IMG/VR virus record: IMGVR_UViG_3300045412_000261
Coordinates: 32,001 to 96,000 of that record
Direction: 5' to 3' (one strand)
Source of the DNA: a virus
Length of the DNA stretch: 64,000 bases
The translations under genes were made by a program, and so were the position numbers. This document shows positions 5,703 to 37,900 of the stretch, piece by piece; position 1 is the stretch's first letter; each line of letters starts with the position of its first letter. Under the pieces are notes generated by a model. The model was not told the DNA's origin and did no database searches. It was given only the letters and a program-made list of their open reading frames with translations.

Positions 5703-6207
5703 CTATATAAAACTCATTATAATTTACAATAAACCTCTTAAGTCCTGGAAAAGTTCTATCAGCATTCAAAACTTCATTTCTATTTAGTTGCGCTACTTTA
5801 ACTTTGTCTCCTCTGACTTTCCAATAGATTTCTGCAAATATAAGTCTATTTCTGTTATCCTGCAAGTTTTTAGACGAAAAAAAATCTTCTTTGCTAATTT
5901 CTGTTATGGATGTTACTGGTTTTATTCTTTTTTGGTAGAAATAACGCTTGAAATATAAGCCTTCTTCTTCTATTTGCTCTCTTGTAGGTGTATATGGATT
6001 TATATTTACATACTCCACCATAGGCTCCGAACCAATTGAAGAATAAACTCTTCTTTTAAATTCGTATTCCAAAAATAATCTTTTTCTAGTATCTTTTTCA
6101 TTTATACCGGCGTAGGGTATTCTATTGGTATAGAAATAATATCCTTTGTACGGTTTATTATCTTCATCCCATAAAAAATTACCTTCCGTATAAAAAAAAT
6201 TAGCCAT
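5689..6207 (-). CDS. Hypothetical protein
   Basis: 172-aa ORF in the operon; no recognised motif. Confidence 0.55.
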   Translation of the reverse strand: MANFFYTEGNFLWDEDNKPYKGYYFYTNRIPYAGINEKDTRKRLFLEYEFKRRVYSSIGSEPMVEYVNINPYTPTREQIEEEGLYFKRYFYQKRIKPVTSITEISKEDFFSSKNLQDNRNRLIFAEIYWKVRGDKVKVAQLNRNEVLNADRTFPGLKRFIVNYNEFYIDDGY

Positions 6208-6219
6208 GATTATTTTATT

Positions 6220-8238: not shown

Positions 8239-8539
8239 TTATCGATTCGTCTTTTAATTGTTCTAATTCTAATGTATCCAACGGATATGGAATTCTTAAT
8301 CTTATTCCTACAGGAGGTACTATAGTTCCCTTACCTATGTCATTTTCGTTCGCTATAATCCACCAATATCTAGGATCTCCATAATAGTCATTAGCTAATA
8401 AATCAAGTCTATCTCCTGCTCTTGCGTATATATAAAAATCACTTGTTTTTGGAGGTATTTTATAGTAATATGTAGTACTGAATCTTCTAGCTCCTGATTC
8501 TTCTTTTATTACAGTAGTAAGCTGTTGATATCTATTCAT
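8222..8539 (-). CDS. LysM-like baseplate protein (gp53 / P2 gpX-like)
   Basis: GDRLDLLANDYYGDPRYWWIIANEN...GIRLRIP is the typical tail-X/LysM signature. Confidence 0.8.
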   Translation of the reverse strand: MNRYQQLTTVIKEESGARRFSTTYYYKIPPKTSDFYIYARAGDRLDLLANDYYGDPRYWWIIANENDIGKGTIVPPVGIRLRIPYPLDTLELEQLKDESINGTSF

Positions 8540-9384
8540 TATCCAAAAAAGTTTGATGCTACTTGAGGTTTTCTTTTTCCTATATACCCTATTTCCATTG
8601 AAACATTTGTAATCATTGGAAGTTCTTTTTCTTCATCCCATACTATAGAAGCATTGTCCCATTCAAATGTTAAACCTTTAATATAACCCATTTCATTGGT
8701 ATATAGTTTTCCTATATTAAATCTAACGTAAGATCCTACATAAGGCCCTCTATAAACAGGTAAAGAAAGTTTAGATAATTCATTAAGTTTTACTAATGTA
8801 GTGTCTATACTAATTCCAGAGGTAATTTCAGGATATGTTATATTAGCTTGTCGAGTAGATAAGGAAGATACTTTAGAATAATCCGTTAAATTTGTAGCTA
8901 CGTCTCTTGTAGTATATTCAGTGCCTGAAGATCTTTGAATAGCGCCTCCTATAATTTTATCAGATAATTTGTTTACAGAAGGGTCCGATAGAATCCTAGA
9001 AGACTCAATACCCGGTAATCGTCTATTAGATGAATTAGAAACTAAAGTTGTATCTAGTTGTTCTTCAAATAAATTTCGTCTAGGATTAGTCTCGCTCTCT
9101 ACTGCGACTGCGAAAGATAAAGATATAGTCCTAGTAAAACTCCGATATAATATTTTTGGATCCGCTCTTCCTATATCAAGCCTTTCATCCCATTCAGGAG
9201 ATGATGAATCAGATATATTATTAATATACGCTAATAAATCTATTACAGGCCCTTCCCCTAAATTTCCAGCAGATATTCTTTGGAATGAAAATTTAAAAGG
9301 TTTTTGTCTATCCCTAATACTTAAACTTCCTTGTCCAGCGAGTGTATTAGTAATAGCTTTAAAATCTAAATTATTTGATGGCAT
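8539..9384 (-). CDS. Putative tail-tube initiator / baseplate protein
   Basis: AYINNISDSSSPEW...IGRADPKILYRSFTRTISLSF and GYIKGLTFEWD..W..ELPM; lies between the tape measure and LysM genes. Confidence 0.55.
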   Translation of the reverse strand: MPSNNLDFKAITNTLAGQGSLSIRDRQKPFKFSFQRISAGNLGEGPVIDLLAYINNISDSSSPEWDERLDIGRADPKILYRSFTRTISLSFAVAVESETNPRRNLFEEQLDTTLVSNSSNRRLPGIESSRILSDPSVNKLSDKIIGGAIQRSSGTEYTTRDVATNLTDYSKVSSLSTRQANITYPEITSGISIDTTLVKLNELSKLSLPVYRGPYVGSYVRFNIGKLYTNEMGYIKGLTFEWDNASIVWDEEKELPMITNVSMEIGYIGKRKPQVASNFFG

Positions 9385-9393
9385 GGTTATTTT

Positions 9394-12300
9394 TTATGGT
9401 GAACTTTCTTTTCTAATATAATTTTTAGTCTGTCTTCTTCCTTCATCAGTAAAGAAAGCAACAGCAGGTTGATTTATTTTTTCTCTAATTGATTCTAATA
9501 TTTTTAATTGTTGTTGCATTAATTCTTTATGAGCTTTTTCCTTTTCTATATTTTTTTCTTTTACTGAATTCATTAATGCTGTAGCTTCTAAACTTTTACT
9601 TACGCTATTAACCATTACTGATTCTCTAGCCATGCTTGTCGTACCATAATTAGGAGTGATTCCGGATAATCTAGTTGACATTGATTTAAAAGTTGTGGGA
9701 GTCATATCAACCATAGAAGTTTCTACAGGAGTTCCCGTAGCTTTAGGTTTATTTAAAGAAGTTGAAATACCCCCGCCACCACTCATTCCATTCATTCCAG
9801 CGTACATAAATGGCTGTGCTGTAAAAGAACTTGATTTATTTTTATCGAAATGAGAATCTATTATTTTAGTTGTAGCAAGATATCCCGCCGTGCCTCCAAT
9901 TAAACCTCCGATAGCAGCTCCTATAGGACCTAGAAAAGCGCCCATAGCGGCTCCACTAACAGCTCCGCCAGCAATGGCTCCTAATGCTCCCCCTACAGAA
10001 GTTGTTGCTGCTTGTTTAGTAGATTGCCCTTCTTTTTTCCTTTGCGCATAATCAAAAACTGCGCTAGCGGCAGCCATAACACCTCCTATTTTAGCAATAG
10101 AACTAGGCTTTATATTCTTTATAAAAGACTTCACTTTAGAAAACCTTGATGAACCCGTTTTACCCGTGACATTAGCTCCACTAGCGTTATCTAGTATAGT
10201 GGATGCTACACTTCCAGTGCCTCCTCCAATAGTTCCTCCTACAATCTTAACATACATGGGATTAGATTTAGAACCAAGAGTACCTGATATTGCGTCCAAA
10301 CCTCCTCTAGCTTTTCCTACTGCTTCTCCAATTTTACCTCCAATTTTACCTCTTATAGTTTTGAGCAGCAATCCTCCCATTACACTACTCATAGCTATTG
10401 CCATACTTGCGTCTAATCCTGGGGTATTAGAAGTTCCATCTTGTTTTTCTTGAGTGCCAGTAAATTTACTATATACTTTTCCGGGAAATCCTGCTACAGC
10501 TTTTATACCTCCAGCAACAATATTGATAGCCCAAGCCATATAATCAATGATAGGAACAATAGCTTCTAATATAGGTAATAAAGATGATTTAAATGCTACG
10601 CTTACTTTTTCTATTGCCGTATTGAATCTTTCGGCAGCCATTACTTTCTTAGTTTCTATCTTATACAATTCTACATCTTTTCCCGCCACTTTATCTAAAT
10701 AATCGCTATTTCTCATTGCAGCGTCTAAAGATTCGGCATCTTTTAATCCAATCTTTTCTCTTAAATACAAACTTTTTTCTAATTCAGATACTTCCATTCC
10801 AACAGCATTTGCCATGAGTTGTCTCTTAGCAAAATCCATGTTTTGAAATTCATCATAACCTCCCATTGTATCCATCATTTGTGTCATAGCTCCGGCAATG
10901 TCATCTTGTAAAAGCAATTCTCTAGCTTTTCCAATATTAACATGTCTTCCTAATGCTACTGATGCTTCAACTTCTGCTACGATGCTTTGCTCAAATGACA
11001 ATAAATGTTGTGTCATTTTAGCCGCTTTTTGAAAATTTAATCCTAATGCTTTTACTTGCAGATTAGTTTCTATTAAATTTCTATGAGCTGATTTAGAATG
11101 TTTATTGATGTTAGAAAAATATTTTGATGCAAATTCAGCATTTTGAGCTATATCATCTACTATTGATTGAGGAGAAAATCCTTTTTTATCTGCGAGCTCT
11201 AGTGCAGCAGCCATAAGATTACTAGCCTCTTTGTCGCTTCCTCCTTTCATTCTTAAATTTTCATAGAATGCACCGGCTGATTCCACAGACAATCCTATGT
11301 TTTTTGCATTATCGGCTACACTAGCTAATGCTTTATCATTTGTTTGTAATAATATGCCTGAATCTCCTAAAATGCCTTTTTGAACATCTCTGACATCTCT
11401 AAGACTGGCGTACATGTTATCATATTGAGTTTGAGCATTCATTGCATTCTTAAACATATCGTAAGATTGCATATTGGATGTTCCTAACTCTGCTGATATT
11501 TCTTTTATTTTACTATTTAACCTATTTGCTGCTCCTAATATTCCTATAAATGCAGTTGTTAATCCTGCCATGATTACAGTAAAAGGAGAGACTTTGAACA
11601 TTGCACTAATTGATGCCATCATCCCTTTGAAAGAACTTCCCGTTTTGGCGTAAACTTCATCAAATTTCTCATATCCCGCTTTCAAGGTATCTAAAGCTGT
11701 TTTTTTAGCTTTTGCTTGAGCGCTGTTAAAGATTGGGAAGAATGAATTCAACTTATCATACAAGAAAGTTACTTCTTGTTTACTATCTTTGTATATCCCC
11801 TGCAACCTTTTCCTAAATGGGTCTGACAGTAGGTCATTGCTTTTTTGTCTTTTTGCATCTTTTTCTTCTTTTCTTTTTCTTTTTTCCTCCTCTTTAGCTG
11901 CTTTTTCTATACTTTCTGGTGAGTTAGGATCTGCTACTCTCTTTTTTTCTTTTTCAGCATCTTTTTTCTTTTTATTCGCTTCTGTCTGTGCTTTTTTTAT
12001 CCTAGCTTCTTGCATTTTAGCTAAATTCTCATTGCTTTCTCTACTTTTTCTTAATTCTTCTGCTAATTTATCCATATCTCCTTTTCCTCCACCTCCGGGA
12101 AGACCCCCTAGTTCATCTTTAAGTAACTTTAAAACTGATGGATCTATTGCAACTAATGTTACATTAAACGAAGGAGAAGCGGAATAATAGTCTAATGCTT
12201 TTTTCATTGCTTCATAAACTGTATTTCCTATCCTATCTATTGTCGAATCACTGAATTCTGATGGTTTACTCATCGGAGAATTAGAAAATTGACTAAAAGC

Positions 12301-13593
12301 TCTAGAGGCTCCCTTGAATACCGCCTCTTCGATTATTTTAAGCATTTCATCTGATACCTCTCCGGGAGAAGCTGTTTTTCCTATATTTATTTCTGGTGCA
12401 GTATTTATCGGTGAGGAGCTGCCTGTACCTCTACCACCGCCTTTACTACCACCACCTGGTGTAATTTCTCTTCTACTTTTTCCACCTCCACCACTTCCGA
12501 CTTTTTCCGAGGATGATGCAACTACGTCGGGAACCGTATTGGGAACAACTTCTGCGGGTGATGATGCAACTACGTCGGGAACCGTATTGGGAACAACTTC
12601 TGCGGGTGATGATGCAACTACGTCGGGAACCGTATTGGGAACAACTTCTGCGGGTGATGATGCAACTACGTCGGGAACCGTATTGGGAACAACTTCTGCT
12701 AGTGATGACAATTTTTTATTTAGATAATAATCTGATAACTTTTGAGCACTCATTTTAGTGATTTGGCTCGTGCTTAAACCTGTAAATTTTTCTATATCTT
12801 TAGATAAAGGAGCTGGATTTCCACCGGCATCTATAGATGTTTGAGAACCGTGAGAATATGTAATCATTTGTCCAGCTACATCTATCGGTAAAGTATCAGG
12901 AATTGGACTTTGATTTATAAAAGTTGATATTAAATTAGCTCTTGCTTCACGCCTTTCCTTATCTATGGCAGTCTTTGATTTATAAGTACCAAGTGCATGA
13001 GATTTTAAAAGACTGCTTAAACTACTTTGAGATTTACTATCTAATTTATTTCTTGCTTCGTTTATAGAACTTACATTTTCTCCTAGTTTTTCAATAATTA
13101 CATTTCTATTATTTTCTAAGTATTTATGATCTTCCTGATTTATTATATTTCCTTGTAAATCTCTTTGTATAAGAGTATATTGCCCTGATCTATATCTAGA
13201 CAATATATATTGACTATTAACAAAAATAATATTTATATTTTCTAAAATCTTGTTTACTCTTTCCTCTACACTAGAAGGATCATTCTCCACTGCTAATGCT
13301 AATGCGTCTAACGAAGATTTAATCTTATTATTGGCAGTACCCAATAATATATCGAGATTATCCTTTGCCTTTTTGTATTTATCTACCTCTTTTTTTCTAG
13401 CATCATATAAAACTTGTAATTTATTTCTTTTTGCTTCAATTCTAGGACCTGTTTTGGCATCTGCTATTAATTTATCTAATTCTGCTAAATCTTCTTTTGT
13501 TATTATAGCTAATTTCTCCTCTGCATTAGTTAAATGAGTTTTTAAACTTTTTAAAGTTTCGTTTAATGCTTTTATAATACTGCTTAAAGTCAT
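9394..13593 (-). CDS. Tape measure protein
   Basis: 1399 aa, helical and Ala/Lys-rich, with a Gly/Ala hydrophobic C-terminal segment (GALGAIAGGAVSGAAMGAFLGPIGAAIGGLIG); downstream of the tail tube and chaperone genes. Confidence 0.8.
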   Translation of the reverse strand: MTLSSIIKALNETLKSLKTHLTNAEEKLAIITKEDLAELDKLIADAKTGPRIEAKRNKLQVLYDARKKEVDKYKKAKDNLDILLGTANNKIKSSLDALALAVENDPSSVEERVNKILENINIIFVNSQYILSRYRSGQYTLIQRDLQGNIINQEDHKYLENNRNVIIEKLGENVSSINEARNKLDSKSQSSLSSLLKSHALGTYKSKTAIDKERREARANLISTFINQSPIPDTLPIDVAGQMITYSHGSQTSIDAGGNPAPLSKDIEKFTGLSTSQITKMSAQKLSDYYLNKKLSSLAEVVPNTVPDVVASSPAEVVPNTVPDVVASSPAEVVPNTVPDVVASSPAEVVPNTVPDVVASSSEKVGSGGGGKSRREITPGGGSKGGGRGTGSSSPINTAPEINIGKTASPGEVSDEMLKIIEEAVFKGASRAFSQFSNSPMSKPSEFSDSTIDRIGNTVYEAMKKALDYYSASPSFNVTLVAIDPSVLKLLKDELGGLPGGGGKGDMDKLAEELRKSRESNENLAKMQEARIKKAQTEANKKKKDAEKEKKRVADPNSPESIEKAAKEEEKRKRKEEKDAKRQKSNDLLSDPFRKRLQGIYKDSKQEVTFLYDKLNSFFPIFNSAQAKAKKTALDTLKAGYEKFDEVYAKTGSSFKGMMASISAMFKVSPFTVIMAGLTTAFIGILGAANRLNSKIKEISAELGTSNMQSYDMFKNAMNAQTQYDNMYASLRDVRDVQKGILGDSGILLQTNDKALASVADNAKNIGLSVESAGAFYENLRMKGGSDKEASNLMAAALELADKKGFSPQSIVDDIAQNAEFASKYFSNINKHSKSAHRNLIETNLQVKALGLNFQKAAKMTQHLLSFEQSIVAEVEASVALGRHVNIGKARELLLQDDIAGAMTQMMDTMGGYDEFQNMDFAKRQLMANAVGMEVSELEKSLYLREKIGLKDAESLDAAMRNSDYLDKVAGKDVELYKIETKKVMAAERFNTAIEKVSVAFKSSLLPILEAIVPIIDYMAWAINIVAGGIKAVAGFPGKVYSKFTGTQEKQDGTSNTPGLDASMAIAMSSVMGGLLLKTIRGKIGGKIGEAVGKARGGLDAISGTLGSKSNPMYVKIVGGTIGGGTGSVASTILDNASGANVTGKTGSSRFSKVKSFIKNIKPSSIAKIGGVMAAASAVFDYAQRKKEGQSTKQAATTSVGGALGAIAGGAVSGAAMGAFLGPIGAAIGGLIGGTAGYLATTKIIDSHFDKNKSSSFTAQPFMYAGMNGMSGGGGISTSLNKPKATGTPVETSMVDMTPTTFKSMSTRLSGITPNYGTTSMARESVMVNSVSKSLEATALMNSVKEKNIEKEKAHKELMQQQLKILESIREKINQPAVAFFTDEGRRQTKNYIRKESSP
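12512..12699. repeat. Perfect 48-bp tandem repeat, about 4 copies, in frame in the tape measure gene (AEVVPNTVPDVVASSP)
   Basis: Unit GATGATGCAACTACGTCGGGAACCGTATTGGGAACAACTTCTGCGGGT starts at 12512, 12560, 12608 and 12656. Confidence 0.95.
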
Positions 13594-13619
13594 TATATTT
13601 CAATTATTTATAGTATGAA

Positions 13620-13877
13620 TTATTTATACTTTTTAAAATGTTTATTATTGGAATCAGCATCATGTTTTAATGATTGTAAACGTTGTAATCTTTGAGCTCT
13701 TAATTTTTTTAATTTCTCATCTTCTTTTGCAGCATTATACATTCTACCTACCATCTTTAATTGTGCAGGAATGGCTAATAATGAAAAAAGGGAGGAGAGA
13801 ATCCCCTCCCGAATTTCTTTCATTCTACTATCTTGATTTTTTGGATGCTTTTTTATTGGCTTCATTTCGTTCTTCAT
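13620..13877 (-). CDS. Small basic hypothetical protein
   Basis: 85-aa ORF between the chaperone and tape measure genes; the true start may be a later Met. Confidence 0.45.
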   Translation of the reverse strand: MKNEMKPIKKHPKNQDSRMKEIREGILSSLFSLLAIPAQLKMVGRMYNAAKEDEKLKKLRAQRLQRLQSLKHDADSNNKHFKKYK

Positions 13878-14034
13878 ACGCTTGTTGTAATCTATTGTAA
13901 AAGAATTTTCTAATAAATATAGGCATGTCCATCAAATCATTGTATGTAAATCCTTTTCCATAATGAATTAATTGAAAAATTTCTTCATATATGTACTGCC
14001 TATCTCTCGAGGTCAGGCCAAAAAAATCTTTCAT
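13828..14034 (-). CDS. Small tail/baseplate assembly protein (gp51-like), possibly the frameshifted extension of the upstream gene
   Basis: YEEIFQLIHYGKGFTYNDLMDMPIFIRKFFY resembles the small ORFs that follow T4-like gp26; overlaps the upstream gene across a T7 run. Confidence 0.6.
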   Translation of the reverse strand: MKDFFGLTSRDRQYIYEEIFQLIHYGKGFTYNDLMDMPIFIRKFFYNRLQQAYEERNEANKKASKKSR

Positions 14035-14845
14035 CGAAAACCATTGGAGCGCGAAATGGCTCCCCGGTATACCGGTCTATTACTTCTACGTTAAAATCAA
14101 CATCAGGTTGAATTTTACTAATAAATGATCTAATGGCTCTGCTGTCTGCTGCTAATAAATCAGTGTCAATATAATGTCTAATTGCTACTAAATCCATATT
14201 TCCATCAAGCGCTACAATCATGTATTTTAATCTTAATGTTAAAAGACCTGGATCCTTTCCTACTTTTTCATAAGATTTAACAATAGCGTCTATTTCTTTA
14301 TCTTCTTTCCCTGTTAACAATTTAACATGTGCTTCTTTTTTTGATTTAGGAAGGATGAGTTTAAATAAATTACTATTCTTTGTAACTAGTACGGACTCGT
14401 CAATCGGCTTGGGTTTTAAGTCGCTCAAGTTAATTGTCGTATCTTGCGTATTACCTGATGGAGTAGTTACTTGGATAACATATTCATCGCCATAAGCTGC
14501 AATTCTAGACGCAATCATAATAGCATTCTTATCTCCAACTAACAAATCATCCCAATCAATCTCTGATACAAGCAAGTTTCTAAACATCCTCTCAATGGCT
14601 GTTCCTTGCATTATATAATTCTGATTGGTTAAAATATCCTCATCTTTGGCAGTCATGTATCTTAATTCTACTTGACCAGATGATAACGGATTATCTTTAG
14701 GATAAAAAAGACCTCTGGATGGTAAATCTACAATTAAGGTAGTTTGATTAGTTCCTTGAGGGACAGTTGGAATAACCGGGGTAGGAATTTCCATGCCGTC
14801 TTCACTAGGACTTTGATTAAATGTAACTTCTCTGTCTGGTTTCAT
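14000..14845 (-). CDS. Baseplate hub assembly / tail assembly chaperone, T4 gp26-like
   Basis: VDLPSRGLFY, ELRYMTAKDEDILT, LLVGDKNAIMIASRIAAYG, C-terminal FFWPD. Confidence 0.75.
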   Translation of the reverse strand: MKPDREVTFNQSPSEDGMEIPTPVIPTVPQGTNQTTLIVDLPSRGLFYPKDNPLSSGQVELRYMTAKDEDILTNQNYIMQGTAIERMFRNLLVSEIDWDDLLVGDKNAIMIASRIAAYGDEYVIQVTTPSGNTQDTTINLSDLKPKPIDESVLVTKNSNLFKLILPKSKKEAHVKLLTGKEDKEIDAIVKSYEKVGKDPGLLTLRLKYMIVALDGNMDLVAIRHYIDTDLLAADSRAIRSFISKIQPDVDFNVEVIDRYTGEPFRAPMVFDERFFWPDLER

Positions 14846-14883
14846 AATATTTATGGTTATTTAATTTTATTTTTTAAATGTTT

Positions 14884-15654
14884 TTATCTTGCAAAAACTC
14901 TGATGGATGGAGCTTTTGCAGTAAGAGAATTTACAGAACTAGGTAAAGAATTTCTGTTAATTTCATTAAAAGTTTCTCCATTATTGTACGGAATAATCTT
15001 TTTAGCGTTAGCATCTTTTATTAACGCATAATCATACGTAATTGTTACAGATACTGTAGATAAAGAATCGTCTGACATATCTAATTCTCCCCATTTAACT
15101 GCTGACACATAAGCCCCATGTATTTCCCATCTCTCCGATTGCACATTAGTTCTAGGCATTAATGTTTCTAAAATTAATGTTTTTTTGTAGGTTTCTAAAG
15201 CATATTCTTCACCTTTTACATAATTAGAATGTGTATTCATTATCCATTCATATACTAAAACGGAGGAATCATTCTTTACGTCTTCTGAACTTGACAGAGG
15301 GTCAACCAATGGATTATTTGAAGCTCTAGGAGAAAATCTATGAGCTGCAACAGGATCATATAACACTATTTCTATAGGGTCCCAAGTTATTTTACCTTTA
15401 AAGTTAGTTTTTGTATTTATATATTGTAACTCTATATTTTCATAGTTAAATCCTGGTTTAGTTACGGACTTTACTAGATATGTTGGTATGTATATTCCTT
15501 GAACATCTAAATAAAGTACAAATCTATTTTTTAATTTAGGTTCAAAATAAGCGAAAGGTCTATATTGAGTATATTCGGACGCTCCAGTCATTATCATTTC
15601 GGTATTTGATAAGACTTCTTTTTTATCTCTAAATATGGGCGTAGATTTAGCCAT
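14884..15654 (-). CDS. Tail tube protein paralog 3 (gp19-like)
   Basis: FEPKLKNRF, YINTKTNFKGKITWDPIEIVLYDP, WEIHGAYVSAVKWGELD...TITYDYA. Confidence 0.8.
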   Translation of the reverse strand: MAKSTPIFRDKKEVLSNTEMIMTGASEYTQYRPFAYFEPKLKNRFVLYLDVQGIYIPTYLVKSVTKPGFNYENIELQYINTKTNFKGKITWDPIEIVLYDPVAAHRFSPRASNNPLVDPLSSSEDVKNDSSVLVYEWIMNTHSNYVKGEEYALETYKKTLILETLMPRTNVQSERWEIHGAYVSAVKWGELDMSDDSLSTVSVTITYDYALIKDANAKKIIPYNNGETFNEINRNSLPSSVNSLTAKAPSIRVFAR

Positions 15655-15660
15655 TTTTCT

Positions 15661-15672
15661 TTATAATAAATA
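15661..15672 (-). promoter_or_regulatory. TATTTATTATAA motif, candidate late promoter
   Basis: Exact copy of the recurring intergenic motif, 6 nt upstream of the ATG at 15654. Confidence 0.55.
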
Positions 15673-15707
15673 TGTCAGAAACGTAAAATTAATACAACAA
15701 TCAAAAA

Positions 15708-16409
15708 CTAGTTTCTCCCTCCGTTGCCTCCGAATAATCCACCTATTGCGCTTATTGCTGCATTGGATGCTGCCTGCGCTGCACCTTTTCCTATATTTAT
15801 GGCCGCGTCTTTTAATTGACTTCCTAAATTCGCCCCTCCTCCATCTAATCCAGGACCCTCCACATCTGGAAGTTTAACTTTACTCCCTCTTACCATAGCG
15901 TAATCGTACACTATTGTTCCCTCCATTAATAATAAATCATCACTAGACATATCAAATTCACCCCATTTAACAGAATCAAAAAATGCTCCCACTAATATGA
16001 AAGAATCCATGACATCTCCATGGGGTGATAAGGATCTTAGGTATAATGTTCTTTTATACTCATGTATAAAGCCATCTTCTCCAGGAGTTAATAAATTAAA
16101 AGATCCTCCTGTTGTGCCTGAATTATGGTGGTAATTGTTAATGTAATCGTGTAACATTTTAGCGCCATTATCTTCTATAGGGTCATAGAAACGTACTGTT
16201 ATAGGTTGCCATCTTGACTTACCCTTTACATGGAATTCAGTGTTAATATAATCTACCGTAACGTGATTATTTTCTAAAGTAGGTCTTTCGGCTGATTTTA
16301 TAGCATAAGTAGGGAAAAAAGGGCCGAAAGGATCCGCTTGCATATATAACTCAAAGCGCATTTGTTGCTTTGGGTTGAAATATTTAAAAGGTTTATGTGT
16401 AAATGCCAT
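15708..16409 (-). CDS. Tail tube protein paralog 2 (gp19-like)
   Basis: FNPKQQMRF, VKGKSRWQPITVRFYDPI, WGEFDMSSDD...YDYA; closely similar to 16468..17040, with a Gly/Ala C-terminal extension. Confidence 0.85.
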   Translation of the reverse strand: MAFTHKPFKYFNPKQQMRFELYMQADPFGPFFPTYAIKSAERPTLENNHVTVDYINTEFHVKGKSRWQPITVRFYDPIEDNGAKMLHDYINNYHHNSGTTGGSFNLLTPGEDGFIHEYKRTLYLRSLSPHGDVMDSFILVGAFFDSVKWGEFDMSSDDLLLMEGTIVYDYAMVRGSKVKLPDVEGPGLDGGGANLGSQLKDAAINIGKGAAQAASNAAISAIGGLFGGNGGRN

Positions 16410-16423
16410 GTATATTATATAAG

Positions 16424-16451
16424 CACAGGAGGAAATTGATTTCCCCCTGTG
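16424..16451 (-). terminator. Stem-loop between tube genes 1 and 2 (weak terminator or mRNA-stabilising hairpin)
   Basis: Minus strand CACAGGGGGAAAT-CA-ATTTCCTCCTGTG forms a 13-bp inverted repeat with one G:U pair, followed by only a weak U-tract. Confidence 0.55.
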
Positions 16452-16467
16452 ATTTTATTAATCAGTT

Positions 16468-17040
16468 TTATGCGTCTACTTTACCTGTAACAACTACTTT
16501 ATTTTTAACAGGTTCCATAACTGCGTAATCATAAGTAATCGTTAAATCTAACATATTCAAGTCATCTGAAGACAAATCCATGTTACCCCATTTAGCATCT
16601 GCTACAAAAGAGCCATATAATGTGAATGTGTCTGCTACATCTCCATGAGGAGTAAGAGCTTGAAATGTTAAAGTCCTTTTATACTCGTGAATAAATCCAT
16701 CCTCGCCAGGAGTTAACAAACCAGGCGCTCTTCCAGCAGGAAGTTGGATTAATCCTGAATTGTGATGAAATAAACTTATCCAATCATGTAATAATTTAGC
16801 ACCATTAACTTCAATAGGATCATACAAAGTTACAGAAATATCCTGCCACCTGGATTTACCTTTTACTTTAAACTCTGTATTTACATAATCTACAGTTACA
16901 GGATTTTGATCTATAGAAGGTCTGTCTGCTGTTTTAACCATATAAGTAGGGATAGGTACTCCGACGTTAGTCAGGTAGAGTACATATCTCATCTGCTGTT
17001 TAGGGTTAAAATATTCAAATGGTTTATATTCGAATGCCAT
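16468..17040 (-). CDS. Major tail tube protein (gp19-like)
   Basis: Directly follows the sheath gene; FNPKQQMRY, KGKSRWQDISVTLYDPI, WGNMDLSSDD..LTITYDYA. Confidence 0.88.
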   Translation of the reverse strand: MAFEYKPFEYFNPKQQMRYVLYLTNVGVPIPTYMVKTADRPSIDQNPVTVDYVNTEFKVKGKSRWQDISVTLYDPIEVNGAKLLHDWISLFHHNSGLIQLPAGRAPGLLTPGEDGFIHEYKRTLTFQALTPHGDVADTFTLYGSFVADAKWGNMDLSSDDLNMLDLTITYDYAVMEPVKNKVVVTGKVDA

Positions 17041-19803: not shown

Positions 19804-20340
19804 TTAATATTTATTTAGTTCATCATACGCATCATTAATTCCAGACCTGTAATCAGTAGTTGTAAGATTTGTTTTCCTACTTAAATGTGCTTGTGCTATA
19901 ACAGATATATTATAACCAAACTCAGATTCTTCTCCTAATACGTGAGGTATATATGTTTCGGGATTTCTACCAAACCAAGCATTATCAGAGAATACATTAT
20001 TCAGTTCATAAAAATCCATATCAAAAAAAACATAATCTCCAGGTTCTATAACTAAATCTCGTTCTAATAAATCATCTCTCAAAAAATAAAATGTAGCGTC
20101 TCTTTCAAAATCTAATCCAAAATCAGTATCTATAGTTTCTTTTGTTCCTCTTTTTACTATGCAATTTAATCTAGTAGCGTTATAGAAAACTTTACTAGGG
20201 GCTTCTCTATATATGTTTTCTCTAGTATCCTCTCTAGATAATTTATAAAGTTCGACCTCTAAGGCCATTACTTTATTTACTCTTTCCCTATTTATACTCC
20301 TAACTAAAGAAGCGTCTCTACCACTACCAAATAGCGCCAT
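19804..20340 (-). CDS. Neck / head closure protein (gp14-like)
   Basis: NIYREA, FGLD..RDATFYF, PGDYV; synteny with gp13 and gp15. Confidence 0.65.
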   Translation of the reverse strand: MALFGSGRDASLVRSINRERVNKVMALEVELYKLSREDTRENIYREAPSKVFYNATRLNCIVKRGTKETIDTDFGLDFERDATFYFLRDDLLERDLVIEPGDYVFFDMDFYELNNVFSDNAWFGRNPETYIPHVLGEESEFGYNISVIAQAHLSRKTNLTTTDYRSGINDAYDELNKY

Positions 20341-21500
20341 TATCCTATGTATATTTTAAGTGGAATAACTCCTAAAAATTTCTCATGAGCTTCAGATTCT
20401 GCCATTTTTCTCTCTAATTGCGATTGACGACTAAATTGATCTAGCTCTATTCTAAGTACATCTATTAACTTTTGCTTTTCCTCATTTACCGAATACATTA
20501 AATCTTCGGTATTTAATACAATTTCGTCCTCTAATCCCGGAAGTGTCTTATATTTTCCTCTAACATAAGCTAACATTTCTTTTGATAAAACTAATGTGTA
20601 TTTTCTTATCCATTGTTTACCTATGTCATTTATACTCGAGTAAGGCAAGGTAAAATAAGGTATAGTAGCATGGCTATTTATTTTACCAGTGCCTCCCCTA
20701 TTTGCATTTTTATATTCTGAATCTAAAGTGTACTCAAACCAAATTTTATATTCTTTTGCAGGAGTTGGGAATATTCTAATTCTATTATTTATTATCTCAA
20801 AGCCATACGCTGATTTCCTTATCTGATCATTAAATTCTATGGCCTGCATTCTAAGAATGTCGTGATGTAAAGGCATTAATAAGAAATTCACTCCAGGGCT
20901 ATAATTACCGAATCCAAATTGATCTAGCAAATTTTGAGTACCTAAGCCTGTACCTACGAATGGATCAAAATATTTAACAATAGCAGGTGGAGCATTATGG
21001 AACATTTTTCTTATTACGAACTTGTCTGTAGCGGGATTCCCAGATTCTAATGATACTCTATTTGAATCTAATAAACTATAAACTTGTTTTCCTTCTTTTA
21101 CGAGTATAGAACCAGTATAAAAAGTTGTTTTACCTCCCACTCCGACTTCTGTTCCGTATTCAGAAGCTATTTCTAAAACTCCGGCTATTGAGTTGGTAAC
21201 TAACTCTTTTTCTAATCTAAGAGATCCGGTATTGAATCCCATTAAACCTAATATATTATCTTTTGCAGAATGAGCGTTGACTTGATTACTATATTCGGAA
21301 ATAGCCTCTTCGAAAGCAGTATAAAAATTGATATCTTGTAATTCGACATCAGTAAGCGGGTATCCCAATCTCCTAGCACACCATACAGCAACTTTAGGAG
21401 CATCTTTTTGAAAATTGGTATCTCTGTCAAATATTCCGAAAGGCGTAGATCCAGATACTGCGCTACCACTTCCAGGCCAAATAGGTATATGAACTGTCAT
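20340..21500 (-). CDS. Neck protein (gp13-like)
   Basis: RRLGYPLTDVEL, WIRKYTLVLSKEMLAYVRGKY, C-terminal PLKIYIG. Confidence 0.8.
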   Translation of the reverse strand: MTVHIPIWPGSGSAVSGSTPFGIFDRDTNFQKDAPKVAVWCARRLGYPLTDVELQDINFYTAFEEAISEYSNQVNAHSAKDNILGLMGFNTGSLRLEKELVTNSIAGVLEIASEYGTEVGVGGKTTFYTGSILVKEGKQVYSLLDSNRVSLESGNPATDKFVIRKMFHNAPPAIVKYFDPFVGTGLGTQNLLDQFGFGNYSPGVNFLLMPLHHDILRMQAIEFNDQIRKSAYGFEIINNRIRIFPTPAKEYKIWFEYTLDSEYKNANRGGTGKINSHATIPYFTLPYSSINDIGKQWIRKYTLVLSKEMLAYVRGKYKTLPGLEDEIVLNTEDLMYSVNEEKQKLIDVLRIELDQFSRQSQLERKMAESEAHEKFLGVIPLKIYIG

Positions 21501-21546: not shown

Positions 21547-23829
21547 TTAATACACTTGTCTTATAAAGGATACTAGTACATATCTAACTCCGGATATCAC
21601 AGGTCTAGCTCCATGTCTATGTGTTATTTGTCCAGGATGGATTGTTAATTCACCTATTTCTCCTTTAACTAACTTCTTTTGTTTTGAGAACCAAGTACCT
21701 CCTCCTTCGTATGCATCGTTTAGCGTTAACACAGTAGAAAATGCAGAATCGTCATGGTGTAAAGATAAATGTCCTTGATTTTCCGGTGTGTATTTTATAA
21801 TAAAGTTTTCCGAACTAAATTTTTTCCATTTATCTCCAGTAAGTACAAAATTAGATTTTACGAGGGGATATATGTAAGTATTTAAAAACATGTCATAAGC
21901 ATCATGTAATTGAAATTCATTGATTAACATGTCATGCGTTGGATAATAATAATGTCTATCTTTTGTCCATTTTCCGCACTCTTCTGCTAATCTTATAACT
22001 TCATTGCAAAATTCTTTTTTAAATGCGTGTAAATGTAAGACATCAGGTATAGGTTCGTCTACAATTAAATCATATTCTTTATTCTTTAATGCAGGATTGA
22101 TGTACATTGAAGACCATTTGTCTATGTCTTTTATTAGATAGATATTAGATGCAAATGAATTATTAGATGTTTTACTTGTTTTGGAATTACTTGTTTGACT
22201 TACTATACATTCTTTTAGACTGTATGCATTTATGTCTTTCCATATAAAATTTAAATCATTTCTTTCATTGTTATTTGAATATGTAGATGCTAAGAAATCA
22301 TCTAATGGTAAGATGTATTTTTCAAAGTTCTGTTCTAATATTCTTTCTATACCTAATTTTGATAACATGTAGGCATGAGATAACCATGAGTATCCCGGGG
22401 ATGTGTATATGGAGTTTGGTATGTCTTTGTCCCCGCCTAATTTTTGCCTACCGAGATATAAAAGACCCCAATCATATAAATCAATTTTTTCCGCGGGGAA
22501 CTCTACATCTACTTTAAAATCATCCTCCAAAATTAAAATAGATCCATAATTTTTCTTTTTAGCATCTTTCCATATAGATAAATGAGATAAAGCACATCCA
22601 ATCTCCCCGGGTAGTATATTCCGGTTATAATATGAATTACTGTGATTATTTATTTTCCAATCCTTATATAAAGACCAATCAAAATCTACTTTAGGATTTC
22701 TACCATCTACGGCCTTAAACAAATGAAATTCACCTGGTATAATACCTAACTTATTAAATTCGGAGGTGTATTTACTAATAGCTTCATCAGATACGTCAAA
22801 AGTAATTACATAGACAGCATCTATCTTTAATTTATTTTCCATGACATTATTATTTATAAAATTTTTAGCAATATTTAAAGGATTAAAAGCATCATATACA
22901 TTTAATTTAGATGTATTAGGATTAGTAAGCATTCTAAAATTATCATTCGACAATACACATGACAACCATGAATCAAAATCAATATAATCAAATATAGTCT
23001 CTTTCAATCCCGCTCTTAATCTTGTTATAGGAATCAATCCCAACATCTGCATTTCTACAGCTGACACACAAAATGTTTCATCGTAATTCGAAGGATATAA
23101 CCAATATTTTTTATTACTAGCAAAAGATATCAAATCACTCTTTTTCATGCAACCATAATAATATACATTTTTATACGTTGTAGTAACATGAGAGAAATGA
23201 CTATTATAAAACTCTTCTCCGTATTTAGGTGTAAGGATATACAGACATGATTGAGGTCTGTGATATAAAATCTGCCTCCAATGTGTTAAAATTTCTCTTA
23301 ATCCTCTTTCTGCATGTGATATATAAATGTAAGAATCTTGAATTTTAAATTTATCCGACTTTTCTATATGTTTTACCGCATTATATAAAACAATAGATGG
23401 AATGTTGGGAAAATGATTATCAAATTCTTTTTTATGATAATTAGATACGCAAATAACACTTTTAAACTTAGGATGATTAAATACCCTATCTTGTAATTCT
23501 GGTATATTATTTCCTTTGTAAAAATTATAGAAAAAAGGATCTGTGTTATGTATCCAAAAATAAGACTCATCGTAGCTAGTATCTGATATTAAGTCGATAT
23601 AATGCGTGTAATTTAGAGAAATTAATATGTCTGCTTGTAAATTATAGTCTTTTGTGTAAATAACTCCATTTAAGGCGTTCTCACGAACGATATCCCCTGT
23701 TATGAATACAGTATGCCCTAGGGACGATAAAGCCTCGGAGAAGTAACGTAAAGCCCATTCAGTGCCGGCGAAGTCATCTCCGCTGGCGTTAAAATTTGAG
23801 TAGTATCCAATATAAAACTTAATTGTCAT
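21547..23829 (-). CDS. Tri-domain protein: GT4-like glycosyltransferase + GT25 (collagen galactosyltransferase-like) + PLOD-type 2OG-Fe(II) lysyl hydroxylase
   Basis: aa 1-325: GTEWAL..LGHTV, VICVSNYHK, YPSNYDETFCVSAVE. aa 330-555: AVDGR, GEIGCALSH..IWK, ILEDD, WGLLYLGR, YSWLSHAYMLS, LPLDDFL. aa 565-760: EPIPDV..FCNEVI, YPTHD, FIIKYTPENQGHLSLHHDDS, YEGGGTWF, HPGQITHRHG..GVRYVLVSFI. Confidence 0.88.
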   Translation of the reverse strand: MTIKFYIGYYSNFNASGDDFAGTEWALRYFSEALSSLGHTVFITGDIVRENALNGVIYTKDYNLQADILISLNYTHYIDLISDTSYDESYFWIHNTDPFFYNFYKGNNIPELQDRVFNHPKFKSVICVSNYHKKEFDNHFPNIPSIVLYNAVKHIEKSDKFKIQDSYIYISHAERGLREILTHWRQILYHRPQSCLYILTPKYGEEFYNSHFSHVTTTYKNVYYYGCMKKSDLISFASNKKYWLYPSNYDETFCVSAVEMQMLGLIPITRLRAGLKETIFDYIDFDSWLSCVLSNDNFRMLTNPNTSKLNVYDAFNPLNIAKNFINNNVMENKLKIDAVYVITFDVSDEAISKYTSEFNKLGIIPGEFHLFKAVDGRNPKVDFDWSLYKDWKINNHSNSYYNRNILPGEIGCALSHLSIWKDAKKKNYGSILILEDDFKVDVEFPAEKIDLYDWGLLYLGRQKLGGDKDIPNSIYTSPGYSWLSHAYMLSKLGIERILEQNFEKYILPLDDFLASTYSNNNERNDLNFIWKDINAYSLKECIVSQTSNSKTSKTSNNSFASNIYLIKDIDKWSSMYINPALKNKEYDLIVDEPIPDVLHLHAFKKEFCNEVIRLAEECGKWTKDRHYYYPTHDMLINEFQLHDAYDMFLNTYIYPLVKSNFVLTGDKWKKFSSENFIIKYTPENQGHLSLHHDDSAFSTVLTLNDAYEGGGTWFSKQKKLVKGEIGELTIHPGQITHRHGARPVISGVRYVLVSFIRQVY

Positions 23830-23836
23830 ATATACT

Positions 23837-24502
23837 TCAAAATGAATTAGGGTATAAATACTTGAATATATCGTCTAATGCTTCATGTCTATGGTTTGTA
23901 GAAAGAGTAACACAATTTACATACTTACTTTGATTTATTATAGGCACAAATTTAATTGCTGATTGATCTCTATTCCTTAAATCTATTTGATTCTCATCTC
24001 CTGTAAAAATCATAATTGTATTTTTACCTAGACGGCTTATACACATAGATAATTGTTCTTTGGTTAAATTTTGAAATTCATCTATAATACAAACAGCGTC
24101 ATCAAAAGTTCTACCTCTAAAGTGTGCTAAAGAGACTAATTCTACAGATTTATCAGAGTATAGCCTTTCCACAGCAGATTGTTTTGCATAGGCTTTAGAT
24201 ATATTGTCTTTAATAGGGACTATCCATGGTTCTAACTTCTCTTCAAAAGTTCCTGGTAGAAATCCCATTTCTTCCGTAGCTACCATAGGTCTTGTGATAA
24301 CTATTCTATTTATTTCTTTTCTAAAAAACTTATCTAATGCTATTTGAGTCGCTAACAATGTTTTTCCACTTCCTGGTTTTCCAAAAACAAAATTAACTGG
24401 ATGAGTTAAAATTTTTTCTTTTGCTTCTTTTTGATCGTTAGATAATTGAATGTCAAACTTTACCGGATTTTTAGGTACCCTCTTTTCTGTGTTTTCGGCC
24501 AT
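23837..24502 (-). CDS. phoH: PhoH-like ATPase
   Basis: GKPGSGKTLLA, RIVITRP, GFLPG, FRGRTFDDAVCIIDEFQN, GDENQIDL. Confidence 0.93.
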   Translation of the reverse strand: MAENTEKRVPKNPVKFDIQLSNDQKEAKEKILTHPVNFVFGKPGSGKTLLATQIALDKFFRKEINRIVITRPMVATEEMGFLPGTFEEKLEPWIVPIKDNISKAYAKQSAVERLYSDKSVELVSLAHFRGRTFDDAVCIIDEFQNLTKEQLSMCISRLGKNTIMIFTGDENQIDLRNRDQSAIKFVPIINQSKYVNCVTLSTNHRHEALDDIFKYLYPNSF

Positions 24503-34314: not shown

Positions 34315-34933
34315 CTATATTTAAATCTTTTTCATTTATATTATATGTTTCCATAATTTCATTTTTTAAATCATTAAAATCTGATTTAATCTTTTCTAAA
34401 AATGATTCTTTATTTTCGATTGACCATTTTTCAATAGATCCATCCGCATTAGAATATCCCATGTTATCAAATGATCTTAATAAAACTTCTACTTCTTTGG
34501 CTGCTTCTTTTAAAAATGAAATGGCATTCTCTTTCTTTTTATCATGAACGTAAGAATCAAATTTTCCATTTAATTTCAATTCTGCTTCGTATTTTATTGT
34601 ACATTCCAAACATCTTCCTGTTTTTTTTCCTAATTTTATATCTGCTTGACCAAATACTTTACCTTCACATGTATCTAAGCAATTTGGAAATTTCTGTATT
34701 TCATCTAATTTTTTTAAGATTTCTCTAACTCCTTTTGCTCTTTTTACTTTATATCCATCTCTTTGTTCCCATTCTGTAACATCCCCCATTGGTGATACTT
34801 CTTCCCAAATATCTCCAACTTTTCTTATTTGTGAATCTTCTACTTTTCTATATCCAATCGTCGTTCTTTTTTGAGATTTATGTTCCCCAACTAGAAGTTT
34901 TTTTACAGCTTCTATATTTTTTAATTTACTCAT
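34301..34933 (-). CDS. Hypothetical protein upstream of TerL
   Basis: 210 aa with [19 protein letters not shown] and Cys pairs (CLDTC, CLEC). Confidence 0.55.
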
Positions 34934-37900
34934 GATTTTCTCCTTTTTCTAGTTTTGTAACTCTTTTATTTAAATCTTTTACCAAATCATATAGCTCTTG
35001 AATAGCTTTTAAATTATACACCGATAGTTTATCATAGTTAACAGCTAGTACTCCTTTTTGTCCCTCTATCTTAAACTCTTTTAATAATCCTGTTTTAAGG
35101 CCATCGGTTATATCTTGAGCTATAATACCTACTTCTTTATCGTTTACATTAGAAGGAACTCTATGAGATGTTGAATTTTTGTTAACTTCTAATATGACTC
35201 CTTTTAATTCATCCGTGTTCCAATTATAATTAACAGGTTTTATGCTATATAGTTGTTCTAGCACAGGATCTATTTCTTCTATATCCTTTTTTAGCCTTCT
35301 ATCCGAGAATGCTGCAAATGGTCCGCCTATGCCTCTCTCTCCTTTTTGTCCCTTTTGTCCTGTAGGACCGGTAGGACCGGTAGGACCCGTTGGACCGGCA
35401 GGACCCGGAGGGCCGGCAGGACCCGTAGGTCCCGGGGAGCCCGGTAGACCCGTGGGGCCGGTGTTTCCTGTTGGTCCGGTAAGTCCGGTAGGACCTGTTG
35501 GTCCGGTAGGGCCTAAATCTCCTTTAGATCCCTTAGCCCCAACTCCGGCTAATCCTGGGAATCCTATTTCACCCTTTTGTCCCTTAGGTCCGGGGCTTCC
35601 CGTATTTCCTTTAGGGCCTGGAATATTGCTAGGATTTCCGGCTGATCCCTTTGGTCCCGGCCCTCCAGGAGGACCTATTTCACCCTTTTGTCCCTTAGGT
35701 CCGGGGCTTCCCGTATTTCCTTTAGGGCCTGGAATATTGCTAGGATTTCCGGCTGATCCCTTTGGTCCCGGCCCTCCAGAAGGACCTATTTCACCCTTTT
35801 GTCCTTTAGACCCTGTATTTCCTGTGTTTCCTTTAGGGCCTGTTAGGCCAATATCTCCCTTACTTCCTTTATATCCTTTATACCCAATTTCACCTTTGCT
35901 TCCCTTGCTACCTGTAGGACCGGGAATAAAACTAGGATTTCCTTGAGGTCCTATGTCGCCTTTGTCACCCTTACTTCCGGAAAATCCGATTGAACCTATG
36001 TCTCCTTTATTGCCCTTGTCTCCTTTATATCCTTTATATCCAATTTCTCCTTTACTTCCTTTGAAATCACCTTTACTTCCTTTATCACCCTTACTTCCTT
36101 TATCACCTTTACTTCCGGATGGTCCTGGAGGACCTATTTTAGAACTTGGTATAGGAGATGGACTAGGTGACGGTGCAAAAACCCCTATACTCTCCGGAGA
36201 TGACATATTATGTACTAATATGTCTTCAACAAAAAAGTTTTGATTTTTCTCTACACTTAAATTGTATACAGTGCTTGATGTTGCGTATGAAAAAATAGTG
36301 GATATCTTTTCATAAGACAATGTTTTATAATTAAATAGTTCATCATTTATCGATAAATCCTTAGCTTTTTTCCAATATTTGTCATACCATCCTTTAACAT
36401 AAAAGGGATGCTCTTCGGTGCATTGTATGTCATTATTTATTACGTATAAATAATTTGCTTTTCCTACATGTTTGTATATTATTGTATCTTCTTGTAAGAT
36501 TTTGTTATCTATATCATAAGACATGATTGATTGTCCTATTGTAACTTCCTCTATTGTTATATAGCTATTATTTGCTGTTAATATCTTAGTAGATGGTATA
36601 AAGCAAGTAGGGCCTATAGATCCTGAAAATCCTTTGTCTCCTTTATCACCTTTACTTCCAGAAGGGCCAATAGAACCCGAAGGGCCGATAGGACCTGGAA
36701 TAAAACTAGGATTTCCTTGCGGTCCTAATTCTCCCTTTTGTCCCTTAGATCCAATATTTCCCTTAGATCCAATATTTCCCTTAGGTCCAATATTTCCCTT
36801 AGGTCCAGTATTACCTGTATTTCCCTTAGGACCGGGGATAAAACTAGGATTTCCTTGCGGTCCTGTATTGCCTTTATCACCTTTACTTCCAGAAGGGCCA
36901 ATAGAACCCGAAGGGCCGATAGGACCTGGAATAAAACTAGGATTTCCTTGCGGTCCTAATTCTCCCTTTTGTCCCTTAGATCCAATATTTCCCTTAGATC
37001 CAATATTTCCCTTAGGTCCAATATTTCCCTTAGGTCCAGTATTACCTGTATTTCCCTTAGGACCGGGGATAAAACTAGGATTTCCTTGCGGTCCTGTATT
37101 GCCTTTATCACCTTTACTTCCAGAAGGACCGGTAAATCCTAAGTTTCCTTTTTGTCCCTTAAGTCCTATAGATCCTTTATCTCCCTTACTTCCCGACGCT
37201 CCTATGGGACCTTTTTCCCCTCCACCGGCGATAGATACAAAACCTTTAAAACATTCTCCAAAAGTTATTTGAATTGTATTTTCATCTATTGCCGTGTAAT
37301 TTTCAGGTATAACTGAATTCCCGTCATATGAATATATAGTAAAAACAGGATATTCGATTCCTGTTCCGTGATTAACTGTAATAACATTACAACTATTCAG
37401 AGAACCTGTAAATACAGTGTTTCCAATTTCTCCTTTAGATCCGCTATTACCCTTTAACCCTGGATTTCCTTTAGGGCCTATATCTCCCTTATCTCCTTTT
37501 GTTGAAGAACTTGCTATTAATGCTTGAAATGCAGGACTACTGTTAAATGTATTTATTAAAAGTTGTTCATCAATAGTAACGTCAATATTAACTTTTACTC
37601 CATAAACTGTCGTGGAAAAATTAGCAGAGACTCCAATAACATTTAAATACTCTATTTCAAAAATATACTCAGTGTCTATTTTAGCTATTGGTAAATTATC
37701 TAAGGGAATATCTAAACAAAATTCATTAGGAGTTCCTCCATCAGATGCACTTGGGAAGATATCAATATCAGAGACATTCCATTGTCCTGCATTAATAATA
37801 AAGTTAGGTTTTATATTATCTTCTGAAGTAGCTTTAAATGTAAAAGTCTTTTTAATTTCAGACTTGTTATTACCTCCTATTATAGATCCTAAAAAAGTTC

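Follow-up and report, generated by a model that had tools for sequence, protein, structure and literature searches.

A three-domain GT4-GT25-lysyl hydroxylase protein of a T4-like phage, predicted to modify its collagen-like fibres

The IMG/VR virus record IMGVR_UViG_3300045412_000261 (142,581 bp, estimated 82% complete) is the genome of a ~143-kb T4-like myovirus, with PHROG matches for sheath, tape measure, adaptor, major capsid protein, portal, TerL and baseplate genes. These genes bear out an original prediction, made by a model from the bare letters, that the DNA belongs to a phage of bacteria; they also rule out a giant virus, which was considered given the A+T-rich composition. We analysed bases 32001–96000 of this record (64,000 nt, G+C content 31.5%), to which we refer as the window. 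On its minus strand lies an open reading frame (ORF) with an ATG start and no internal stops, encoding a protein of 760 amino acids (aa) in which two glycosyltransferase (GT) domains, of families GT4 and GT25, are fused to a lysyl hydroxylase (LH) domain of the type found in animal PLOD enzymes and in mimivirus L230. The ORF occupies exactly the positions that had been predicted, the strand having been left unstated, and all of the motifs quoted for it are found, aligning as claimed. Its parts are:

21547–23829, minus strand: three-domain ORF, GT4 - GT25 - lysyl hydroxylase, 760 aa, stop codon included in the coordinates
22840–23829, minus strand: GT4-type domain of GT-B fold (retaining class), residues 1–330; EX7E motif E251–E259 at 23053–23079
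22186–22827, minus strand: GT25 domain of GT-A fold, COLGALT1 type, residues 335–548; EDD (435–437) at 22519–22527 and D510/D511 at 22297–22302
22135–22185, minus strand: Ser/Thr/Asn-rich linker, residues 549–565, where COLGALT1 has its lid loop
21550–22134, minus strand: LH domain, a PLOD/L230-type 2-oxoglutarate (2OG)/Fe(II) double-stranded beta-helix, residues 566–760; H691-H-D693 (Fe triad) at 21751–21759 and H739 to R749 (Fe triad and 2OG binding) at 21583–21615

The LH domain is closest to collagen lysyl hydroxylases. In phmmer searches of the PDB, it matches LH3/PLOD3 (E 2e-22, query residues 571–756) and L230 (E 9e-19). Family profiles, built from homologues of the 760-aa protein, give E-values of 7.8e-34 for LH3 and 2e-33 for L230, with the next 2OG oxygenases, prolyl 4-hydroxylases, at an E-value of about 0.5. 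The LH domain was also considered as a prolyl or nucleic-acid hydroxylase, a candidate rejected because its profile matches only LH3 and L230; a Pfam OGFOD2-like match at residues 582–661 is sub-threshold. Foldseek superposes the domain on the L230 structures 6ax6 and 9nev with TM scores of 0.84–0.88 and root-mean-square deviations of 1.8–2.3 Å over ~200 columns, at 27–29% identity. The Fe-binding residues H691, D693 and H739 align with H667, D669 and H719 of LH3 and are invariant in 28 homologues, as well as in a set of 23, while R749, ten residues past the distal His, aligns with the 2OG-binding R729 of LH3 and is likewise invariant in the 28. The LH domain of L230 itself forms an Fe-stabilised dimer through a C-terminal hydrophobic contact (L873).

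The GT25 domain is recognized by Pfam (PF01755, residues 339–444, 60.1 bits against a cut-off of 24, E 3.6e-16), and phmmer matches it to COLGALT1 in the PDB with an E-value of 1e-13. Its family profile spans the whole C-lobe of COLGALT1 at E 5.6e-33, compared to 3e-8 for mimivirus R655 and 1e-6 for bacterial GT25 proteins, on which ground assignment as a bacterial lipopolysaccharide (LPS)-type GT25 was rejected. E435-D436-D437 aligns with the identically numbered residues of human COLGALT1, where D436/D437 form the DxD motif binding metal and uridine diphosphate (UDP). Further on, D510/D511 (PLDDFL) align with D522/E523 of COLGALT1 (PVDEFL in the human protein), D510 being invariant in one homologue alignment and nearly invariant in another. 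In COLGALT1, D522 is the catalytic base and E523 anchors the epsilon-amino group of hydroxylysine (Hyl) (PMC12987934). At the place of the COLGALT1 lid loop (S569/T571), the family has a conserved Ser/Thr-rich stretch (Q.SN..TS.TE), which HMMER left unaligned. By every sequence and fold criterion tested, save the acceptor-cleft residues discussed below, the LH and GT25 domains belong to the LH3/L230 and COLGALT1 families.

For the N-terminal domain, the family profile matches GT4 structures, namely an MshA-like enzyme (7qsg, E 4e-7) and BGluT. An AlphaFold2 model of residues 1–335 has a mean predicted local distance difference test (pLDDT) score of 89.3 and shows a GT-B fold of two Rossmann domains; its top Foldseek matches are all retaining GT4/GT5 enzymes (GlgA, the alpha-1,2-glucosyltransferase tll1591, PimA, BshA and MshA). 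The EX7E motif (E251-TFCVSAV-E259) lies in the C-terminal Rossmann domain, with both Glu residues invariant among homologues. The model of the full-length protein (pLDDT 87.5, predicted TM score 0.54) contains three confident domains and a short disordered Ser/Thr-rich linker, with pLDDT below 50 at residues 556–558, and matches LH3, COLGALT1, L230 and GT-B enzymes structurally. All three domains are under purifying selection: ratios of nonsynonymous to synonymous substitution rates (dN/dS), computed per domain against five close relatives, are 0.12–0.14 for GT4, 0.14–0.24 for GT25 and 0.02–0.03 for LH. These profile and structure searches uphold the predicted identity of each domain (a GT-B/GT4-type N-terminus, a COLGALT1-like GT25 and a PLOD-like hydroxylase, whose closest matches are indeed LH3 and L230), together with the predicted Fe triad and 2OG-binding Arg. 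No NCBIfam model fits the 760-aa protein.

Candidate substrates are encoded in the same genome. Two collagen-like proteins lie in the window:

34926–39536, minus strand: collagen-like fibre of 1536 aa with a C-terminal Peptidase_S74 chaperone; Gly-X-Lys in 57 of 150 triplets; candidate substrate
55234–57378, minus strand: collagen-like protein of 714 aa; 30 triplets, none of them Gly-X-Lys; internal contrast

A third, of 1187 aa, is encoded just outside the window and has Gly-X-Lys in 39 of its 72 triplets. In both Lys-rich fibres, Lys is almost absent from the X position. These two fibres are the likely targets of the enzyme, which probably does not modify the 714-aa protein. A Hint/intein-like domain (residues 989–1110; 36207–36572, minus strand) breaks the run of collagen triplets in the 1536-aa fibre; its Pfam matches, Intein_splicing (E 1.2e-7) and PT-HINT (E 5e-5), are both under their cut-offs. 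No prolyl hydroxylase gene was found in a search of this genome.

The association of enzyme and collagen recurs widely. Among 61 distant viral loci, whose enzymes are 34–37% identical to this one, 55 have, on the same strand, a collagen ORF (of up to 2,238 aa) that ends a median of 809 bp upstream of the enzyme gene; each of the six exceptions has less than 1.8 kb of upstream sequence. Across 18,145 triplets of the linked collagens, the residue at Y is Lys in 40% and that at X in 0.2%. As controls, we used 80 IMG/VR loci with a bare ten-triplet Gly pattern, for 72 of which a search of the entire record was possible. None of these 72 records contained a full PLOD-type LH domain, and two had partial matches to ~200-aa oxygenases. 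Lys at Y amounts to 4.1% in the 72 control phage collagens (median 0), against a median of 32% in 40 distinct enzyme-linked collagens (Mann-Whitney p 1.5e-16, a value not corrected for relatedness). The collagen link of the original prediction is thus strongly borne out, through conserved synteny with giant Gly-X-Lys collagens and through the excess of Lys at Y.

Further genes accompany the pair in some phages. In one distant phage, the portal gene is followed by those for a small protein, the collagen-S74 fibre, a laminin-G protein, a DUF6445 protein and the enzyme, and in ~60-kb phages laminin-G-like and DUF6445 proteins likewise lie between the collagen fibre and the three-domain enzyme (positions 8299–10004 of stretch L057). 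These could be further fibre-modification or fibre-binding factors; DUF6445 we take to be perhaps a cupin/2OG-oxygenase-like family. In the genome studied here, a search run without a positive control found no DUF6445 gene.

Full-length three-domain homologues (745–850 aa, 31–40% identity) are common in metagenomes. Relatives are encoded on at least 318 IMG/VR contigs, and the 760-aa protein is therefore not a singular oddity. In databases, such relatives carry names like 'GR25 family glycosyltransferase involved in LPS biosynthesis', 'hypothetical protein' or '2OG-Fe(II) oxygenase'. Searching 1.84 billion representatives (of clusters at 50% identity) with the LH profile returned 179 proteins at E <= 1e-30, and the best 129 of these were classed by architecture with local hidden Markov models (HMMs). 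LH alone accounts for 64 of the 129, GT4-GT25-LH for 23, GT25-LH for 18, GT25-PLOD_GT-LH for 15, GT4-LH and PLOD_GT-LH for four each, and PLOD_GT-GT25-LH for one.

Some of these architectures occur in cultured phages. Cyanophages S-PRM1 (AXN58392.1, 614 aa, annotated as hypothetical) and S-8S55 (WLW37668.1, 621 aa, annotated as a 2OG-Fe(II) oxygenase) encode GT25-LH proteins, with the enzyme gene three genes downstream of a collagen-S74 fibre (AXN58396.1 in S-PRM1) in which Lys occupies Y in 23 of 59 and 24 of 55 triplets, respectively. The module consists of the collagen-S74 fibre, a small ORF, two small 2OG-Fe(II) oxygenase genes (in S-PRM1 prolyl-hydroxylase-like, Pfam 2OG-FeII_Oxy_3) and the GT25-LH gene, and spans positions 4926–13767 of stretch L122 in S-PRM1 (MH629685.1) and 8907–16680 of stretch L123 in S-8S55 (OQ504983.1). 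By Pfam, the domain order of the S-PRM1 protein is GT25, PLOD GT domain (PF25342, E 9e-46) and LH; the S-8S55 protein has matching GT25 and LH parts, and its gene order, taken from GenBank annotation, is that of S-PRM1. GT25-LH is thus joined by a second glycosyltransferase here too, of a form not homologous to GT4. A few kb downstream of the cyanophage module lies a gene annotated as 'NAD dependent epimerase'.

Other architectures are found on bacterial chromosomes and in a large contig. Aliishimia, Granulosicoccaceae and Chromatiales encode a 556-aa GT4-LH protein without GT25 (in Aliishimia at 9992–11662 of stretch L084, chromosome OY782680.1). The scanned Aliishimia and Chromatiales loci are set among ordinary chromosomal genes, and the Aliishimia genome has a long (GAKGDT)n collagen-like gene elsewhere, at ~1.496 Mb of the chromosome. 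A 431-aa GT25-LH protein, 48–49% identical to the GT25-LH part of the phage protein, is encoded on a 161-kb Joint Genome Institute (JGI) contig (positions 1–12348 of stretch L254), within a replication block and near a stand-alone GT25, Methyltransf_21, two sugar-nucleotide epimerase/dehydratases and a prolyl-hydroxylase-like gene.

In animals, collagen Lys is converted to Hyl, Gal-Hyl and finally Glc-Gal-Hyl (Gal, galactose; Glc, glucose) by LH3/PLOD3 and COLGALT1/GLT25D1. Judging from homology and conserved motifs, the phage protein is fairly probably a trifunctional enzyme that modifies the phage's own collagen-like fibres along a similar route, from Lys to Hyl to glycosyl-Hyl. The enzyme would be cytoplasmic and expressed late, acting on fibre chains before the triple helix folds. 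Its LH domain would use Fe(II), 2-oxoglutarate and O2 to hydroxylate Y-position Lys residues in Gly-X-Lys-Gly, a specificity to which the abundance of Lys at Y in linked collagens lends indirect support, after which the GT25 domain, as an inverting GT-A enzyme of the COLGALT1 type, would move a hexose (Gal or Glc) from a UDP-sugar to the new hydroxyl group. The retaining GT-B domain, GT4, may then add a further alpha-linked sugar, likeliest onto the first hexose as the animal PLOD GT does; this is the weakest step of the scheme. With all its domains fused, a single protein could act along an unfolded chain. A disaccharide is favoured by the occurrence of a second transferase in two non-homologous forms, the PLOD GT in cyanophages and GT4 here. 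The original prediction described such a single-chain pathway as convergent, which holds for GT4, a non-homologous stand-in for the PLOD GT, and fails for LH and GT25, both of them homologues of the enzymes of animals and mimivirus.

A number of observations weigh against this scheme or parts of it, and some of them suit other explanations. The acceptor-cleft residues K470 and W495 of COLGALT1 are not conserved (Q and L here, N in the family consensus), and the acceptor cleft must therefore differ in detail from that of COLGALT1. In the bacterial GT4-LH proteins, GT25 is missing, in Aliishimia with a (GAKGDT)n collagen in the genome, so GT4 may act directly on Hyl. Both points are in keeping with a different division of labour, in which GT4 glycosylates Hyl itself and GT25 extends that sugar or modifies another subset of Hyl residues, yielding a product unlike the animal Glc-alpha1,2-Gal-beta-Hyl; the use of Glc by the GT25-like domain of L230 likewise indicates that donor choice in this family is plastic. 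We nonetheless consider this order unlikely, as GT25 retains both the catalytic base and the acidic anchor for the Hyl amine, as GT25-LH proteins without GT4 are common among the classed representatives, fitting GT25 as the Hyl-directed transferase, and as cyanophages pair GT25-LH with the PLOD GT, the animal second-step enzyme. The GT4 assignment itself stays below Pfam cut-offs (Glycos_transf_1, residues 219–281, 20.1 versus 26.4 bits; Glyco_transf_4, residues 93–152, 14.7 versus 28.5 bits), and a relative in phage stretch L057 just passes the GT4 models with 26.5 and 27.2 bits. Such weak scores would suit a protein with partial activity, for instance a hydroxylase in which one or both GT domains are reduced to scaffolds. 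COLGALT1 has such a scaffold in its N-terminal GT-A domain and LH3 in its accessory domain, and in the animal enzymes GT domains are as a rule catalytically dead (PMC12987934). With EX7E, EDD and the catalytic Asp invariant or nearly so in 28 homologues at 33–40% identity, and with dN/dS of 0.12–0.24 over both GT domains, we regard a scaffold role as very improbable.

The remaining doubts concern the substrate. In this phage, 11 kb separate the enzyme gene from the nearest collagen gene, and the case from synteny therefore depends on distant relatives. Lys fills 19–31% of Y positions in a few control collagens whose records contain no LH gene, although most of these records are incomplete; with five controls at 20% or more, the link between enzyme and Lys is strong, not absolute. 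A target other than collagen, such as Lys in further proteins of the virion or the host or, for the GT domains, sugars of the host's LPS or capsule, would agree with the LPS-related Pfam name of GT25 and with the position of the gene beside phoH, where no collagen gene adjoins it. It would also agree with a metagenome-assembled genome contig (L083) that has no collagen within 6 kb upstream, and with the two-domain form in the replication and sugar-nucleotide gene cluster of the 161-kb contig. Against it stand the GT25 profile, which fits COLGALT1 ~27 orders of magnitude better than bacterial GT25, the LH profile, which matches only collagen lysyl hydroxylases, and the synteny and Lys-at-Y enrichment across dozens of distinct phage lineages, and we hold such a target to be improbable.

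The enzyme gene is part of the late structural block. Its neighbours are phoH (23837–24502), which it follows after 7 nt, and a head-completion/adaptor gene (20340–21500), which it precedes by 46 nt. Megablast against INPHARED found no near-identical phage DNA. Among cultured phages, Microcystis phage Mel-JY01 (59.7%) and Flavobacterium phage immuto (54%) have the nearest capsid proteins. Neither encodes the enzyme, and in both the gene order is capsid, phoH, head completion; the enzyme gene is therefore an insertion in a late head-neck block. One of these two cultured relatives lacks collagen, and the collagen of the other contains no Lys in 202 triplets. The collagen-like protein of Mel-JY01 (1016 aa, Gly-Thr-Ser) is encoded at the genome start and contains no Lys.

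Elsewhere in the genome, outside the window, positions 136798–137811 (minus strand) of the record encode a 337-aa sugar-nucleotide epimerase/dehydratase of the short-chain dehydrogenase/reductase (SDR) type, whose best matches are dTDP-glucose dehydratase and GalE and which falls under every NCBIfam equivalog cut-off. This protein could be a source of the donor sugar. A Dam-like methyltransferase gene adjoins it. Directly upstream of the collagen fibre gene in the window, an ORF of 1043 aa (39540–42671, minus strand) combines a calcineurin-like phosphoesterase with AAA_23/SMC_N and looks like a fused Mre11-Rad50 (gp47-gp46-like) nuclease.

To our knowledge, hydroxylation and glycosylation of collagen Lys are regarded as an animal invention and have so far been shown only in animals and, as one outlier, in mimivirus (L230). 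In the full-text literature (subscription journals outside coverage), we found no description of a phage lysyl hydroxylase, and no paper on the GT4 fusion, the bacterial-virus setting or the conserved pairing with giant collagens. We judge it an evenly balanced proposition that unrelated tailed-phage lineages make Hyl-linked glycans on giant collagen fibres inside bacteria, by means of single chains combining LH with interchangeable GT25, PLOD GT and GT4 domains. In that case, the 'metazoan' pathway would amount to an old set of modular tools in the bacterial virosphere, with GT4-GT25-LH as a distinct solution for making a Hyl disaccharide. If the phage enzymes are active, this chemistry would be widespread in marine and freshwater phages and would operate in the bacterial cytoplasm, and the shuffling of domains would bear on the origin of the animal pathway. 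It would also add an unknown layer to phage fibre biology, for example in helix stability without hydroxyproline, protease resistance or host recognition, and provide compact, bacterial-compatible enzymes for modified recombinant collagen. Cultured cyanophages with the sister architecture make the idea directly testable, and S-PRM1 and S-8S55 are a tractable system for the whole of it.

Of the enzymes characterised so far, mimivirus L230 comes closest, with the animal LH3/COLGALT1 pair next. L230 is likewise viral and carries a GT25-like domain N-terminal to a PLOD-type LH in a single chain, and both viruses encode Gly-X-Lys collagen-like proteins. However, L230 has 895 aa, lacks GT4 and comes from a giant virus that infects amoebae, whereas the phage protein has 760 aa, an extra N-terminal GT4 and a bacterial cytoplasm to work in, and is one of a family found on hundreds of tailed-phage contigs. 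L230 joins lysyl hydroxylase and GLT25D1-like GT activity in one chain, and transfers Glc rather than Gal (PMC9614988). With the animal enzymes, the phage protein shares a homologous LH with identical Fe triad and 2OG-binding Arg, a GT25 homologous to the catalytic C-lobe of COLGALT1 with the DxD motif and catalytic Asp kept, and the predicted target motif X-Lys-Gly. It differs in lacking the inactive N-lobe of COLGALT1 and the accessory domain of LH3, as well as in the unconserved K470/W495. Moreover, animals use two proteins, located in the endoplasmic reticulum, and add the second sugar by the GT-A domain of LH3 instead of a non-homologous GT-B domain. That GT-B domain shares the two-Rossmann fold, the EX7E motif and a glycine-rich N-terminal loop with the GT4 enzymes MshA, PimA, BshA, BGluT and tll1591, at an identity of only 11–15%; we know of no GT4 member that acts on hydroxylysine or collagen glycans. 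The cyanophage proteins resemble it as phage-encoded combinations of GT25 and LH (28–29% identity) adjoining a Gly-X-Lys-rich collagen and Peptidase_S74 fibre. S-PRM1 and S-8S55 differ in the small 2OG-Fe(II) oxygenase genes just upstream, none of which were found in this phage, and S-PRM1 has its second transferase, a GT-A domain of PLOD type, between GT25 and LH, instead of an N-terminal GT4.

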